Notes: generated from the letters alone by a model not told the origin. A stretch of DNA of 64,000 nt from an uncultured bacterium (GCA_963843795.1 CAWJLW010000006.1:1178001-1242000); one strand, 5' to 3'. Shown: positions 51,433-59,765, numbered from the stretch's first letter. Program-made: numbers and translations.

Positions 51433-51891
51433 ATGCACGCGCCCACCGAGAAAAACACGATTTCGCGCCGCTCCGATAAGTCCTCGTGGACTTCTGTATG
51501 GTTGGCGATGGTGTGCGCGCTGCTGCTGGTCTCGCCGGGTCAGGCTGCGCCTTCGTTGTCGCAAGCGCGCCAGACGGCATCTTACGAGACGGTTTTTTAC
51601 TGGTTGCAAAATGCCGAAACCGAATCGGCTTCGCGCGCGCAAGTGCTGCAAACGCTGTGTCGTAGCGCCGGTTTGAACCGCGTTCAAACTGCCAATGTGT
51701 TGAACTCGTATCAGCAATGGACACGCGAACATTCGACATCACAACTTTCCGCATCTGCCGCAACTTTGCCTGCAAGTACTTGCAGGAGCTTTGCGCCGAT
51801 TGTTTTGCGCGATACGCGGCCTTTTGACGCCAAAATGTCGCGTCACACCGGTCGCGCCGCCCATTCACTCGCTGTTTGTTATCTGGAATAG
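51433..51891 (+). CDS. Hypothetical signal-peptide protein directly upstream of secA
   Basis: WTSVWLAMVCALLLVSPGQA-A signal-like segment; TATAAT at about 51409. Confidence 0.55.
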   Translation: MHAPTEKNTISRRSDKSSWTSVWLAMVCALLLVSPGQAAPSLSQARQTASYETVFYWLQNAETESASRAQVLQTLCRSAGLNRVQTANVLNSYQQWTREHSTSQLSASAATLPASTCRSFAPIVLRDTRPFDAKMSRHTGRAAHSLAVCYLE

Positions 51892-52045: not shown

Positions 52046-55000
52046 ATGCTCGACTTTAAAAATTTATTCGGCAAGAAAACCGTTGATCCCAACGCGCCGA
52101 TTTCGCATCAAGCGCCCGGCGGTATCGCCGGAGCAGTTTCCAAGCTGTTCGACAAAAACGAAAAAGAAGTCGCCAAGCTGCGACCGACCATTGATCGCAT
52201 TCGCGAACTTGGCGAAGAACTCAAATCGCTGCCCGACGAAGAAATCAAAGCCCGCTCGCAGGCCTTGCGCGAACGCTTCAAAACCGACGTGACCCAACGT
52301 TTGGGCGAATTTAAAGATGGAGAAGGCAACGCTTACGGTTGGCAGGAACTCGGCACCGAGCTTTCGTGGAGCGACGATTACGCTCGCCTGCGACTGGAAA
52401 CTGAAAAGCAAGTTTTGAACGAATTGTTGCCCGAAGCCTTCGCTCTGGTACGCGAAGCGGGCGAACGCACAATTGGTTTGCGCCATTACGATGTGCAGCT
52501 TATCGGCGGCGCGGTTTTGCATTCGGGGCGCATCGCCGAAATGAAAACCGGTGAAGGCAAAACACTCGTCGCCACTTCGCCGGTTTATCTCAATGCACTC
52601 AGCGGGCGCGGCGTGCATTTGATTACGGTCAACGATTATTTGGCCGAGCGCGATGCGAACTGGATGCGGCCCGTTTATGAATTTTTGGGTCTCACGGTCG
52701 CGTTTTTGTTCAACGATATGGACAACGAGGCGCGCAAAGCTGCTTATCAATGCGACGTTTTGTATGCGACCAACAGCGAAGTTGGCTTCGATTATCTGCG
52801 CGATAACATGGCGCGCTCGCCCGAAGATATGGTGCAACGCGCGCTCAACTACGCCGTGGTCGATGAAGTTGACAACATCCTGATCGACGAAGCGCGCACG
52901 CCGCTGATTATCTCGGCGCAAGTTGCCAAAACTGACCGCGCTTTGCGCCGACAGGCGATGGCGAAAACTTGCGACAAATTGGCGCAGCAATTGATGCCTT
53001 CCGTCGTTGACCGCGAAATTGATGCGCTTTTGGATACGCACACGCATAAAGGCCGCGTTTCGATTGATGGATTAATGGAAGACATCATCGGGCGCGGCGC
53101 GTTTACAGAAGCGACTTCGTATCTTGTCGATGCCTATCTCAGCGCGGAAAACAGCGCGCGCGTCGAAAATGCCGCACATTTGCTGGATGTGGCGAACGAA
53201 CTTTCGCAGCATGCTTTAATTGATGAGAGCGGGCGCTCCCGCCTGGAAAAATTGGCCTTGGAAGCCGCCGATGTGGAAAAAGTGCGCGATGCGTGGACGG
53301 CAGAAGTTTCGCATTTGACCGAACCGCTGGCGCGCGCGTGGTCGGTCGGGCAGAGCAGCGATTGGGACGTTGATGCTGTGGCGCGCGAACTATCGCTGCC
53401 AGTTGGCGAGCGCGCAGCGATTGCCGAGTATGAGGGAAGTGGACGCGAAATCATCGCGCGCGTGGTCGGCGATGAGGCCCAACATCGCGGCTTTGTGAAT
53501 GATGGAGATGTGCTCGCCAAAGCCTTGCTGGAAGAATCCGAAGACGTGGCCGGGCAGGTTTTGGATGTGTGTTTGAACGGGCCGGGGGCGCTGCACGAAG
53601 CCGATGCAATGCTGGGCGAAGGTTTGCCCGAAGAAGAAAAGCTCTCCGCTGGCGAAGTGGGCGCGACTGAATTGCGCACCCTTATTGGCGCCATGGAGCA
53701 AATCGCGTTGCGCGGTTTGCTGCCGTTCGATGTGTTGGAACGTTTGTGGCAGACGGTGACTTTACCGCAAGGCGCGGACAAATTGCGTAAAGTAATCGCG
53801 CAAACTATTATCGAAAATCCCGGCGCCAATGCACGCGAAATTTCACTGCGTTGCCAGTCGTACGAAGCCGAACGCCAGAAGTTTTTGCAAACACAAGCGG
53901 GCATTCTGCGAGGCGCTTTGGATGGTTATCCCAGCGTAGCGGGCAAGGCCGAAACCGGGGAAAGCGCGCTGACCCTCAGGCGTTCGTTGCAAAGCGAAAT
54001 TACCAAAAGTGGGCCGTTTGCGCAAAGTATGAAAGCTGTGCGCGACTGGCGACAAGATAACGAACGCGCGCACCATCGCGTGGCCGAAACCCTGGCCGAA
54101 GAAATGGGGCAATGGGTCGAAACTCCGCCCAATGCGCGCAAACAACTCGCTGCCTTGACGCTTGAAGGCGGTAGCAGCCAACAAATGCTGGAGCGCGTTT
54201 TGGTCGCTGTGCGCGATTTGCCGGGCGAAAACACCGAACTGCCGGCGTTGGTCGGCGAAGCGACGCGACAAATCGAAGAATGGCGTCATCAAAGCGCGCA
54301 GGAATTGACCGAACGCATTAGCTCACACATCGAATTGCCCGCAGATGCGCAGTTGCAATTGCAAGAAGCAATTGAAAATGGCGAATACCCGGACACTTTC
54401 GATCAGTTCGCCGGTGAGGTTTTGCTTTCTTCACCAACCGTCGCGCCCCTCGCGGATGCGGTCGATGAATACGGCGTGCGTTTGGAAGAATTTAAATCCG
54501 CGCAGAATCAATCGCTGCTCGAATTCATTGCAAGTACTTGCGACCTGACAACTGATGCCGTGGATATGATTGGCGAAGTTTTGAACAGCCCGATTAAAGG
54601 CGCGCTGGATGAAGCCGTTTTTGGCGAATTGGCGCGCGATACGGTTTCGCGCCATTTGGAACCATTATTGACAGCCGAGAATGCCGATGCGTTTGCCGAG
54701 GAAGTCAAGCGCCGTATTCCGCTCGCCAAAGAAGTGCAGAACAAACTGCGCGCGGCAGATTTTGCCGGTCGTTCGGGCGATGCGCTCCGGCGTTCGATGG
54801 TGCGTCTGGTCGAACGTTCGCTGGAGATCATGCCATTTGAAGATTACAAGCGCGTGGTGCGCAACCTAGGTTGGTTGACTGAAAAGGATGAAAAGCGTCG
54901 CCAATCGGCTCTAACCGATATGGGCACGCTCATCGCCGAACGCGCGGCGGGCACACCAGCGTTTACCGATCCTGAAAACTTTCTGGATACGCTGATTGCG

Positions 55001-58000
55001 GGTGAAATTCTCACCGACGACGAAGCGGCGATTGTGCAGCGCGCGCAAACCGAAGCGCCCGACGAAACCCTGACGCAGACGATTGACCGCGTTTTGCGCT
55101 TGCCCGCCGAACGTCGCCGCCGCTTGGCCGAAGCCAAGTTGCAGGAAGTGCAAAACGTCTTGGATCAGGCGATTCGAGCGCACGCTTTATTCTCTCGCGA
55201 AGTGCATTATGTGATCGATTTGAACCCGGAAACCGGCAAGCGAGAAATCGTGATCGTCGATGAATCGACCGGTCGCAAAATGCCAGGCCGTCGTTTCAGC
55301 GAAGGTTTGCACGAGGCTTTGGAAGCCAAGCAAGGTTTGGAAGTGCAATTGGAATCGCAGACGGTTGCTTCGATCACGATTCAAAACTATTTCCGCCTTT
55401 ACAATAAGCTCAGTGGAATGACGGGCACGGCGAAAACCGAAGAACAAGAATTTGCCAAAACGTATGGCATGGAAGTGGTTTCGATTCCGACCAACCGCCC
55501 CATTCAGCGTCAGGATTTCCCCGACGTGGTTTACAAAACCAAAGAAGCCAAAATGCGCGCGGCGACTTTCGAGATTTTGGAACATCACTGCGTTGATCAG
55601 CCGGTTTTGGTCGGCACGCGCTCGGTTGAAGTTTCCGAACGCACCAGCGAACGATTGAAAGCGCAACCGTTGCAAGCCTTGGTGCTAGCGCACCTTGCGA
55701 AAACCGTGATTTGGGAATCGAAAGAAATGTCAGAAGAGCAAAAGCTGCAATTCCTGACCGCGCTGCGTGTTCCCTTAGTGATGCCGCCGGTTGAAGACGC
55801 ACAGGAATTGAAAAAGCAAGGTTTGCGCGCCGAACCGCTGCCGCTGAGTCAGATCAAGCAAATCGTGAAAAGCGTCGGCGTCGATCCTGACCCGCTGGCC
55901 GAAGCCAACATCGACAAACTGATGAGCTTGTTTTCGGTGAACAACGCCAATCGCGACCGATTGACTTTAGCGTTGAAAAACGGCTTGGCGCATTCGGTGT
56001 TAAATGCGAAAAACCACCGCAACGAAGCGCGCATTATCGCCGAAGCAGCGCGTCCAGGTGCGGTGACGATTGCGACCAACATGGCCGGTCGCGGCGTCGA
56101 TATTATGCTCGGCGGCGTTTTGGATGTCGAATCGCGCTGGCGCGTGATGACGATGCAAGCCCTGGCGCGCCATCTCGAAAATCGCTCGCTTCATGTGCGC
56201 AGCCGTAACGCAGCATCGACGGAAAAATTTGTCACTCGCTTGGCTCCACAAAGTTTGCAAGCCTTAGCGTGGGCAACTTTGATCGGTGAAAAATTGGAAG
56301 CGCTGGAAAAAAGCGGCGTTTTAATCGGGCAGGGCGCGAAAGAAATGCGTGACACGCTGGGGCAGGAAATCACGATTGCCGACTTGCAGCAGAAAGTTCG
56401 CAGTCGCGCGCGTCGTTTGAAAATTGATAAGCAATTGCCGCTCGACCTGAGCTACAACGACCCGCAAGTACTTGCTGCGTTGCAAAATCGCATTGCAACG
56501 CTGGGCTATCAAAAACCGGAGATTTCCGCACTGCAAAGCGCATTGGAAAATGGCGTGCCTTCGCAAGCGGCAGGACGCGATCCGCTGGAAAGCATGATTT
56601 TGGGCGCGCTGAGCGTACCATTGAGCATCGCTCAGCAGGGCGCGCAAAAGCTGGTGCAAGTACTTGCCGACGTGCCCGACTTGGATCGCGCGTTGCTGCA
56701 AGCGTGCATCGATTCCGGCAGTGACGAATTGGACGTGACACAAATCGCGCCCGTTGTCGGTGATGTGACCGATGAATGGTGTGCCACTCGTTTGCATGAT
56801 TGGGACGTGACCAATCGCGACGAGGCACGTCAAATTCTGGAACAGTTGCCTGAAGAACAAATCGAAATCAACGAAGCGCAAATCGCGCGTTTGTTAGGTG
56901 AGCAGAATCTGGGTGGCGGCTGGGTGCGCGAGCGTTTGAATTCTTGGGAAATCTGTTCGATTCCACGTTCATTTGAAGCGAGCGAAGAGATCGCGCAATT
57001 GCTGGGTGATAACGTCGTCGTGCATTATCGTTTGGATACACAAGCCGCGCAAGTACTTGCGGAGCGTTTCGAGAACGACCAGATGGCGCAATTGGAAACG
57101 ACCGAAATTGATGCGCCGAACGTGATTTTATTAAACGATCTGGTGCAGCAGATCGGCGGGCAACCAGATTGGTTGTCGCCAGAATGGTTGCACGGACAGT
57201 TGCTGGGCATGAACCTGGTCACTGGCGATAACGACGTATTCCAAGGCCAAATGATGGCCCAAGCGCAGGACGAAAACGGGCAGGTGCAGGAAATGCCGAT
57301 TGATGTGATGATTTACCGCATTACATTGGCGCGCTTGCTGGCCGCTCTCGATTCGACCTTACGCGAAGCCGTAGTGCGTGTCGGCGATGATGCGGTCAAA
57401 GTCTTAGATTACGTGCGCGAACATGGCGCGTGGGCCAACGAACTGGTGACGCGCGATTATATCGCGGCGCGTTTGCCCATGTTGGGCGATATTCCCATCA
57501 CGCAGAACCAGAATAACGCAGTCAACATCGAAACGGGCGTGGCCGGACAAAGCGCCGATCTGGTGTTGGACGACGAACCTCGTCCCGAAGAGATCGCCCA
57601 CACTTCCGAGCAAGAGGAAGTTTTGGCCCTCGGCGGCTTGCACATTCTGGGCACCGAGCGCCATGAATCGCGGCGCATCGACCATCAGTTGCGCGGTCGC
57701 GCTGGTCGTCAGGGCGATCCGGGTTCGAGCCGCTTTTATGTGTCTTTGGAAGACGAATTGTGGCGTTTGTTCGGCGTGCGCGGGCAGTGGCTGCTGAACA
57801 AATGGGACGAGGACGAGCCGGTCGAAGCGGGCATGATTTCCAAGTCGATTGAGCGCGCACAGAAGAAGGTCGAGCTGAACCATTTCGAAGGCCGCAAACA
57901 CGTCTTGCAATATGACGACGTGATGAATGTGCAGCGCGAAGTGATTTATCGCGAACGCCGCCGCGCCTTGTTGGGTGGCGACTTACATGAAACGGTTTTG

Positions 58001-58735
58001 GATATGGCTCAACAAGCGGCGATTGGCGAGGCCGAAAAGCATTGTCCGGGCGGCGTGCGACCCGAAGAATGGGACGTGCATAAATTGATGCTCGGCCTGA
58101 GCCGCATCTTCGGCGCGCACCGTATCGGCAAACATTTGAATGTTGAAGAACTGGAAGGTTTGCGTTCGCGCGAGGAGATGGACGATCACCTGAAAGAAGT
58201 GATGGCCGAAATTTATGCCGAGCGCGAACATGAAATGGGCGCCGAATATCTGCGCGGCCTGGAGCGTTGGCTGGTCACGCGCACCATCGATGAATATTGG
58301 ATGGAGCATTTGGCGGAAATGGATTATCTGCGCGAAGCGATCTGGCAGGAAGGTTACGCGCAGAAAGAACCGATTGGCGTTTATCGTCAGGAAGGCTTTG
58401 CCCTGTTCCAAAAAATGCTTGGCGAAATTCGCCGCGAAGTTTCGGAGGGCATTTTCTCGCAACAAAACGAGCCGCAGACCATGGAAAGCTTGCAACTCAG
58501 CGGCGTCGATTTGAGCGGTTTGGATTTGTCCGAATTGCAAGAAGGCCGTCTGGTTGAAGCGCTGTCAATGGACGATGATGGAATGGACGACGGCGCGCTG
58601 TTGGCCAAAGATGCCGATGGCGAAAACGAAGACCAAGTCATCGTGCGTCAATCCTCACATGCTCCAGCAATGGCAGGCAGTTCCGAAGTGGAAAATTCCA
58701 ATCGTGCAGCACGGCGCGATAAAAAGAATCGTTAA
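52046..58735 (+). CDS. secA: Preprotein translocase ATPase SecA, giant 2229-aa form
   Basis: [17 protein letters not shown]-like [80 protein letters not shown]. Confidence 0.95.
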
Positions 58736-58788: not shown

Positions 58789-59307
58789 ATGAAACAACAT
58801 TACGCAATGATGGCGGCTTACAATCGTTGGATGAACGGGCGATTATATGAAGCGTGCTCGACTTTGAGCGATGAAATGCGGCGCGAAAATCGTGGCGCGT
58901 TTTTTCGCTCGATTCATGATACATTCAATCATCTGGTGCTGGCCGATCAAATTTGGCTGGGTCGCTTTCGCGGCGTGCCATTTGAGGTCGCTTCTTTGGA
59001 TGAACCGATGGCCGCTTCGTGGGAAGAGTTGCACGCGTTGCGAATGCGGATTGATGTTGAGATTGAGGAATGGTTGAACGGTGTTGATGAAGAGCAATTG
59101 CAGGGCAAGTTGACGTTTCGAACGGTAATCAATCCGCAGCAAATTTCTTTGCCACTGTGGTTGAGCGTCACGCATTTCTTTAATCATCAAACGCATCATC
59201 GCGGGCAAATTACGACGTTGATGGAACAAATCGGCTGCGATTCGGGCGTCACCGATTTGCTTTATTCGCCGTCTGCTATCGCGCTGCGCTCGGTTTCGCC
59301 CTTATAA
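58789..59307 (+). CDS. DinB/YfiT family protein
   Basis: YNRWMN, SIHDTFNHLVLAD, HFFNHQTHHRGQ. Confidence 0.9.
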   Translation: MKQHYAMMAAYNRWMNGRLYEACSTLSDEMRRENRGAFFRSIHDTFNHLVLADQIWLGRFRGVPFEVASLDEPMAASWEELHALRMRIDVEIEEWLNGVDEEQLQGKLTFRTVINPQQISLPLWLSVTHFFNHQTHHRGQITTLMEQIGCDSGVTDLLYSPSAIALRSVSPL

Positions 59308-59309
59308 TC

Positions 59310-59765
59310 ATGGAATTTTCACTCACTACGCCCGCGCTGTTGTTTCCGGCGATTTCGCTTTTACTGCTGGCTTACACCAATCGTTTCTTGGCTCTTGCAG
59401 CTTTGATTCGTAACCTGCACGCGCGTTATCAGGACGCACCAGAACCCTTGTTGCGCGCGCAAATCGAAGCGTTGCGAACGCGTGTGAAATTGATTCGTGA
59501 TATGCAGACTTTGGGTGTTTCGGGCTTATTCTGCTGCGTGTTTTGTATGCTGTTGTTGTTTGTGGGCAAGCTTGTCGCTGGCAAATTTGTTTTCGCCGTC
59601 GCCTTGCTTTTATTGCTGGCATCGCTGGGTTTGTCGATTCGAGAGATTCAGATTTCGGTGAATGCGCTGAACTTGCAACTTAGCGATTTAGATGTCGAAG
59701 AAAAAGATAATCAAGCGCCACGTCGTTGGCGTAATGTCGAACGCAGTGAGAACGATGCGGCGTGA
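59310..59765 (+). CDS. DUF2721 family membrane protein
   Basis: TTPALLFPAISLLLLAYTNRF; REIQISVNAL. Confidence 0.85.
   Translation: MEFSLTTPALLFPAISLLLLAYTNRFLALAALIRNLHARYQDAPEPLLRAQIEALRTRVKLIRDMQTLGVSGLFCCVFCMLLLFVGKLVAGKFVFAVALLLLLASLGLSIREIQISVNALNLQLSDLDVEEKDNQAPRRWRNVERSENDAA

Follow-up and report, generated by a model that had tools for sequence, protein, structure and literature searches.

A giant, probably housekeeping SecA with a degenerate copy of half of NBD2 in the Abditibacteria

Results

Organization of the giant secA gene

The window analyzed here is the complete 64,000-nucleotide stretch CAWJLW010000006.1:1178001-1242000 from the assembly GCA_963843795.1 (4.3 Mb, 92% complete) of an uncultured soil bacterium. 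It carries a secA gene (52046-58735, plus strand) as a single stop-free frame of 2229 codons with ordinary GC content along its whole length. The product has a calculated mass of 248.3 kDa and about 2.5 times the usual size of SecA. The Pfam domains SecA_DEAD, PP_bind, P-loop and SW were all found in this order, which agrees with the uninterrupted open reading frame (ORF) and the ordered canonical motifs described in an earlier, sequence-only reading of the window. The motif spacings given there are exact: 750 amino acids (aa) lie between a 10-aa motif at aa 281-290 (ending at 52915) and QAIRAHALF at aa 1041-1049 (starting at 55166), 106 aa between the end of SERLKA (aa 1206) and the start of the next 10-aa motif (aa 1313), and 499 aa between the end of GVDIMLGG (aa 1357) and the start of the following 10-aa motif (aa 1857). 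Alignment with Bacillus subtilis SecA (1m6n) assigns about 683, 105 and 500 extra residues to three gaps bounded by residues 300/1034, 1205/1310 and 1357/1858, which correspond to 234/285, 450/449 and 497/498 of the B. subtilis protein.

The segments of the protein described below and the ORF upstream of secA are encoded on the plus strand. The first part of NBD1 (aa 33-280; 52142-52885) contains Walker A (K172) and Walker B (D273/E274) and is followed by the PPXD stem and first helix (aa 281-318; 52886-52999), the latter assigned by reading the alignment. A retained PPXD bulb core (aa 948-980; 54887-54985) and a segment comprising the PPXD end, the return stem, the end of NBD1 and the linker (aa 1038-1165; 55157-55540) precede a canonical first half of NBD2, here called copy 1 (aa 1166-1357; 55541-56116), with motif V (R1349/D1352). 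The second half of NBD2 (Q1881, R1885, R1888), the helical scaffold, the wing domain and the two-helix finger occupy aa 1858-2140 (57617-58465), and the protein ends in an acidic tail (58466-58735) which lacks the SEC-C zinc finger present in some homologues.

Identity and conservation

In NCBIfam, the giant protein exceeds the cut-offs of PRK12904 (919 versus 814 bits) and TIGR00963 (864 versus 800 bits) and stays below all four SecA2 cut-offs. A single secA and no second copy was detected by tblastn in the assembly, which answers the question of a sole secA that the first reading had raised. The possibility of an accessory SecA2 was rejected on these grounds, that is all four SecA2 cut-offs are missed and no SecA1 coexists with the protein. 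In an alignment of 57 giant SecAs, K172, D273, E274, R1349 and D1352 are present in 57/57 sequences and Q1881, R1885 and R1888 in 56/57, the remaining one having a gap. The nucleotide-binding residues of B. subtilis SecA named in PMC9926265, K106, D207, E208, D492, Q521, R525 and R528, map to K172, D273, E274, D1352, Q1881, R1885 and R1888, respectively. Position 1880 (57683-57685) is occupied by His; 55 of the 57 homologues have Asn before motif VI. Judged by cut-offs, domain order, catalytic residues and single copy, the giant protein is very probably the housekeeping SecA (SecA1).

Named relatives mostly carry the label Abditibacteriaceae, Abditibacterium or Abditibacteriota and in a few cases Armatimonadetes or simply 'bacterium', from which we infer that the host belongs to the class Abditibacteria (Armatimonadota). 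A query with insert 1 (see below) matched 30 of 31 genomes of this class; the one without a match (G024) is 80% complete and carries two other secA pieces on separate contigs. Untruncated giant frames in the class span 2143-2356 codons, and SecA frames in 12/12 genomes from other families 980-1153. One class genome (G014) contains secA in several broken frames, and none of those with a complete frame has gone back to normal SecA size. Giant secA is also encoded in the complete genome record AP024152.1 of a relative. A survey of the phylum matched SecA in 218 of 221 genomes; among the matches listed (150 of 220), 127 rows fall outside the class, 125 with lengths up to 1227 aa and two giant. For the genome G149 (97% complete) two queries gave no SecA match, possibly due to an assembly gap.

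For seven close pairs of relatives chosen from 38 loci, dN/dS ratios were 0.11-0.21 for insert 1, 0.06-0.31 for insert 3 and 0.04-0.07 for the core, values indicating that the inserts are under purifying selection. The insert sequences diverge faster than the SecA core, and one order-level branch has an insert 3 that is shorter by about 110-135 aa. The expanded translocase proposed from sequence inspection is thus borne out by a sole, class-wide secA that passes the SecA cut-offs, with conserved catalytic residues and inserts under selection.

Inserts 2 and 3

Insert 2 (aa 1206-1312; 55661-55981) is helical and lies within copy 1. It is present in 12/12 normal-sized Armatimonadota SecAs examined, where the GTxS-to-LNAK span measures 109-190 aa, and a profile of such proteins matches aa 1205-1315 with P=98.8. 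The 106-aa insertion noted earlier is therefore real extra sequence but not peculiar to giant SecA; by all indications from these alignments it is old and phylum-wide.

When the protein was compared with itself in 190 window pairs (HHalign), the pair 1142-1248 and 1337-1446 reached P=97.2 and the next one 40.6. The refined alignment of approximately 1166-1316 with 1361-1508 covers 142 columns at 22% identity (E 6.5e-12), and the duplication was recovered with a profile of normal-sized SecAs alone (P=96.6). The first part of insert 3 (aa 1361-1512; 56126-56581) thus corresponds to a degenerate second copy (copy 2) of the NBD2 first half, in which insert 2 is duplicated as well. Its end (aa 1826-1841; 57521-57568) resembles motif V, with Asp kept and an invariant Gln in place of the Arg, a residue which we take to have a functional role in this motif; E1829, G1831, V1832, G1834, Q1835 and D1838 are found in 57/57 proteins. 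Copy 2 is split by an acidic alpha/beta part of about 310 residues (aa 1513-1820; 56582-57505; net charge -33) with a long beta hairpin and four helix-turn-helix-like repeats. Windows for these repeats were picked after seeing the model, and 6/6 pairs gave P 60-92, with reversed controls of at most 3.6.

An AlphaFold model of aa 1150-1925 (pLDDT 87.2, pTM 0.58) has the same helix-strand order in both copies and matches SecA NBD2 with Z 17.6, a root-mean-square deviation (rmsd) of 2.5, 169 aligned residues and 46-52% identity in the top three rows. This match fits the prediction that copy 1 completes the active domain together with the C-terminal half. From the sequence comparisons, insert 3 is best described as a tandem duplicate of the first half of NBD2 that has degenerated and contains nested repeats. 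This origin and the identity of the protein as SecA are, in our judgement, very probably correct. The self-duplication of SecA and the phylum-wide nature of insert 2 had been overlooked in the sequence-only reading.

Insert 1

The 750-aa stretch had been taken for one of three large insertions. Extra residues relative to B. subtilis SecA are certainly there, but a normal PPXD bulb core survives inside the stretch at aa 948-980 and 1038-1058 (detected in 48/57 and 50/57 proteins, reversed 0), so that it consists of two inserts, not one, with about 680 new helical residues in total. Insert 1a (aa 319-945, 627 aa; 53000-54880) is class-specific, nearly all helical and acidic (net charge -46), with weak 65-70-aa repeats in its second half. 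Insert 1b (aa 981-1037; 54986-55156) is a small four-helix unit. The AlphaFold model of aa 281-1120 (pLDDT 86.2, pTM 0.72) is nearly all helical and matches SecA PPXD constructs (5k94, Z 7.0, rmsd 4.2, 130 aligned). In both halves of the protein, the inserts are predicted to fold as ordered domains, with NBD2 still built from copy 1 and the C-terminal half. A near-invariant RRRR..E.K.QE helix occurs in the inserts of giant SecAs.

Within insert 1a, a unit at aa 862-927 (54629-54826) resembles the helical wing domain. A wing-domain profile built from 11 normal-sized SecAs matches aa 863-925 in 22/57 giant SecAs and in 0/57 reversed sequences, and HHalign gave P=86 with the extended and 64 with the normal-only profile. 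Units near residues 680, 750 and 820 partly resemble it (740-777 versus 810-847, P=87; 747-775 versus 876-904, P=75; reversed controls not above 3.0 in 45 pairs). Attempts to extend the wing profile iteratively gave no further units, and reversed controls rose to 10/57 once the unit was part of the training set. The second half of insert 1 may therefore possibly be a degenerate wing-like array.

Three MshEN/GSPII structures align with the model of insert 1b (aa 976-1034), namely 5htl (Z 7.2, rmsd 2.8, 57 aligned), 8pdk (Z 6.5) and 7lkm (Z 6.3). A Z of about 7 is within the common-helix range stated for the tool. Its hydrophobic spacing and final Gln (Q1001, 45/57) fit the 24-residue motif RLGxxLLxxGLIxxxxLxxxLxxQ, which MshEN receptors carry twice, but both glycines and the Arg are absent from the first repeat: where the motif has glycines, the giant SecAs carry L980 (52/57) and Glu or Asp at residue 987 (55/57). 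Insert 1b has no Pfam match.

For the new parts, searches identified no known family or fold. Among PDB sequence profiles, the best E value was 0.75 for insert 1, and nothing was found up to E 10 for insert 3. Pfam scans gave weak, scattered helical matches, the best being CtsR_C in 7/26 members (E 7e-4, below the cut-off), and the ESM Atlas yielded no usable match. With Foldseek, the PPXD model had no match at E <= 0.001 and the NBD2 model matched SecA alone; in VIA, insert 1 reached a best Z of 8.8, against generic bundles. These fold-search negatives carry little weight because both models are far above the advised 400 residues, and the nested domain of insert 3 was effectively unsearched. 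The insert-1 profile matched 18 of 1.84 billion proteins. Two of these are giant SecAs already known, and two weak matches (E 5e-5 and 1e-4) are among the remaining 16. For insert 3, three matches were obtained among shorter proteins, all with SecA Pfam domains.

A conserved ORF upstream of secA

An ORF of 152 aa (51433-51891) with a signal-peptide-like hydrophobic N-terminus ends 154 nucleotides before secA; it belongs to no NCBIfam family. Such an ORF is present at 29 of 37 distinct loci with enough flanking sequence. Twenty-two of these 29 ORFs, picked by motif pattern, share a C-terminus of roughly LxxHxxAxLSGVRTNRRL(N/E), whose distance from the stop codon is constant, and ORFs of this candidate family precede secA in loci L056-L104. 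The ORF in the window does not match this C-terminal motif, its end having diverged in its genus. PMC10987492 describes SecM-like monitors by a small upstream ORF with an N-terminal signal, a spacer of more than 30 aa and a conserved C-terminus, features that the upstream ORF family shares. It is thus a candidate SecM-like secretion monitor or arrest peptide with a non-RAPP C-terminal motif. In the table of secA upstream ORFs of that source, no 'Abditi' entry was found; its genome list contains at least 12 occurrences of 'Abditi', and 2 of 37 places naming Armatimonadota were covered. RNA folding gave an ambiguous structure for the region of the secA ribosome-binding site.

Sec components, neighbouring genes and a repeated palindrome

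SecY has normal length in 40 of 41 genomes and trigger factor was found in 38 of 41, while SecDF, Ffh/FtsY and YidC are each present in 5/5. YidC frames are longer in three class genomes (607, 572 and 492 codons; G000:C6:3462851-3463435, G009 and G026; start sites unverified); two other Armatimonadota have 429 and 470 codons. The short upstream ORF is the only conserved secA neighbour clearly recognised among the 22 largest ORF clusters listed for 53 loci. A DinB-family gene and a DUF2721 gene downstream of secA (58789-59765) are not among the recognised conserved neighbours.

The 12-bp palindrome GCAAGTACTTGC occurs 2567 times in the genome (G000), that is once per about 1.7 kb, and is extended to 16 bp 879 times. 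The window contains 41 copies, four within secA (54530, 56464, 56656 and 57049). In 40 relatives the count is 0-3 per genome, and it is zero in the one of the same genus; 701 copies lie within ORFs of at least 300 aa, in all three frames (432/147/122). The element resembles a species-specific, highly iterated palindrome of the HIP1 kind; a literature search on it retrieved nothing relevant.

A second giant SecA in the phylum

All four genomes of another Armatimonadota family, f18, encode a SecA of 2494-2608 aa (L052-L055; G057, G069, G044 and G081); the NCBI label on one of these proteins is 'Fimbriimonadaceae bacterium'. Here, PPXD and VAR are normal and about 1,400 aa lie within the wing domain, which is multiplied in tandem, with 17 wing-like segments, the native one included, listed for L052 after profile iteration. 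No significant similarity was found between the f18 and the Abditibacteria inserts. A midpoint-rooted tree of core segments (27 rows) contains the 11 Abditibacteria and the four f18 rows as separate groups (100/100 each), and f18 groups with normal-sized rows (95/91). Since the insertion sites differ and the inserts are dissimilar, two separate origins of giant SecA are the simplest reading.

Discussion

The giant SecA shares domain order, catalytic residues, NBD2 fold and single copy with the canonical proteins of B. subtilis (1m6n/7xha), Escherichia coli (2fsf) and Thermus thermophilus (2ipc), but differs from them by the missing SEC-C finger and by some 1,300 additional residues, of which PPXD holds about 680, NBD2 105 and the VAR position 500. 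The VAR subdomain of E. coli SecA modulates ATPase activity and ADP release. It occupies the same site as insert 3, between motif V and the GGLH strand, where B. subtilis SecA has nothing; in the giant SecA, a pseudo-NBD2 half of 499 aa that encloses a nested domain takes its place. Conserved signature inserts of thermophile SecAs, according to PMC7023208, comprise 50-76 aa and are likewise lineage-specific and situated in the ATPase region, whereas two of the present inserts reach 500-680 aa and one is a half-NBD2 copy. Extra residues of T. thermophilus SecA at the insert-2 site of our alignment are probably the 76-aa insert of that source. Very long chains with SecA domains are also found in Omnitrophota and Actinobacteria; these SecA_DEAD proteins, as portrayed in bioRxiv 10.1101/2023.11.21.568195, are membrane proteins without scaffold or wing domain and coexist with a normal SecA. 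The SecA studied here, on the contrary, is complete, has no segment of transmembrane strength and is the sole copy. The f18 protein is likewise giant and built from internal copies, and differs in insertion site and tree branch. No description of the Abditibacteria giant SecA was found in searches of the PMC and bioRxiv literature, although subscription-journal surveys of SecA diversity could mention it.

How might such a protein work? We incline to the view that a single housekeeping SecA carries its extra domains as a built-in holding surface on the jaws of the preprotein clamp. As in other bacteria, NBD1 and NBD2 would hydrolyse ATP and the PPXD clamp would feed the substrate into a SecY of normal size, while copy 2 of the NBD2 half would be catalytically dead. 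PMC5963308 places the substrate site between PPXD and NBD2 and describes a swing of PPXD away from the wing domain and onto NBD2. Both appendages, the one on PPXD and the pseudo-NBD2 one, would accordingly sit on the two domains that close round the substrate, and it is because both large inserts are located on these jaws that a holding surface or a clamp regulator is favoured. The appendages could hold preproteins in an unfolded state or bias how the clamp closes, and thereby take over a SecB-like or regulatory task in cis. For the inserts themselves, a substrate-holding or clamp-tuning role is plausible but tentative, and the built-in chaperone or substrate-holding domains envisaged from sequence inspection are best treated as a hypothesis. 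A bolder picture, which we regard as rather doubtful, would have holdase and translocase united in one polypeptide: the pseudo-ATPase half-domain and a helical arm on the PPXD would form a chaperone cage fused to the motor, with arrest peptides of a new class tuning it. It would go along with the equally doubtful notion of SecA as an evolvable, self-amplifying protein that has become giant in other lineages by multiplication of other SecA modules.

Several results weigh against a holding surface on the clamp. Pfam, PDB-profile and structure matches of the inserts include no chaperone family or fold. By sequence, most of insert 1, its first half included, cannot be traced to a SecA module and only one unit is wing-like; that unit and the own wing domain of the same protein align with no more than P=1, leave-one-out strongly recovered one of four proposed insert-1 repeats in this protein, and neither extra PPXD copies nor PPXD-bulb repeats were found in giant SecA. 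The motif V resemblance at the end of insert 3 is weak (P=33). SecB was found in 0/5 genomes searched, two of which have a normal-sized SecA, and the other helpers are kept; a lost helper thus does not explain the expansion, and compensation for such a loss was rejected. The 248-kDa product is predicted from the sequence, any activity of the inserts is hypothetical, and the two protein halves were folded as separate models, each apart from SecY.

That no Sec helper gene is missing would suit another explanation, namely that tolerant surface loops became longer through internal duplication in the ancestor of the class, the domains being retained solely because they have to fold and pack against the core, without any new activity. 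Faster divergence of the inserts, the shortened insert 3 of one branch and the f18 SecA, whose expansion at another site suggests that SecA expands easily, point in the same direction. On the other hand, the invariant copy-2 residues (57/57) and the near-invariant RRRR..E.K.QE helix suggest specific contacts, and no complete-frame class genome has reverted to normal size, so that we rate such an entrenched scaffold as somewhat unlikely. Less probable still are inserts that bind a lineage-specific partner instead of substrate, be it the ribosome, a membrane protein, a second SecA/SecYEG protomer or an envelope machine. Helix-turn-helix-like, wing-like and MshEN-shaped units could well be typical interaction modules and E. 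coli SecA binds ribosomes, as stated in PMC5963308, but the acidic nature of insert 1a and of the nested part of insert 3 makes binding to rRNA less likely, SecY frames show no enlargement, and the upstream ORF is alone among conserved neighbours in the clusters listed.

Even further from our preference are two explanations that concern insert 1b and the sequence as such. An MshEN-type sensor of cyclic di-GMP acting on the clamp would agree with the three structure matches, the hydrophobic spacing and Q1001; given the absent motif glycines, the replaced Arg, the misfit with the relaxed motif of PMC5013675, the lack of a Pfam match and Z values in the common-helix range, ligand regulation of this kind is very improbable. 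Misassembly or removable sequence such as inteins or introns can be practically dismissed. The product is predicted from DNA and the contigs from two soil read runs are short pieces, none of which spans the gene; nevertheless, the same architecture recurs in 30/31 class genomes and in a complete genome record, for which reason we do not consider the gene misassembled, the inserts are under codon-level selection and one of them is a SecA copy. Inteins obey a junction rule (C/S/T at the start and HN-C/S/T at the end). An intein was rejected, as Pfam scans of giant SecA detected no Hint domain and intein-type junction residues are absent, the single H-[NQ]-[CST] triplet at residue 748 being far from any junction.

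Models of SecA, an essential protein, depict a compact motor of about 100 kDa with a PPXD that swings widely onto SecY. A class-wide sole SecA of 240-260 kDa that bears about 75 kDa on its PPXD and a duplicated half of NBD2 sets limits on how clamp motion, dimer geometry and the binding of ribosomes can be modelled. Its natural domain variants offer tests of the roles of PPXD, VAR and the wing domain, and the independent second expansion within the phylum suggests that there is a repeatable route to giant SecA.

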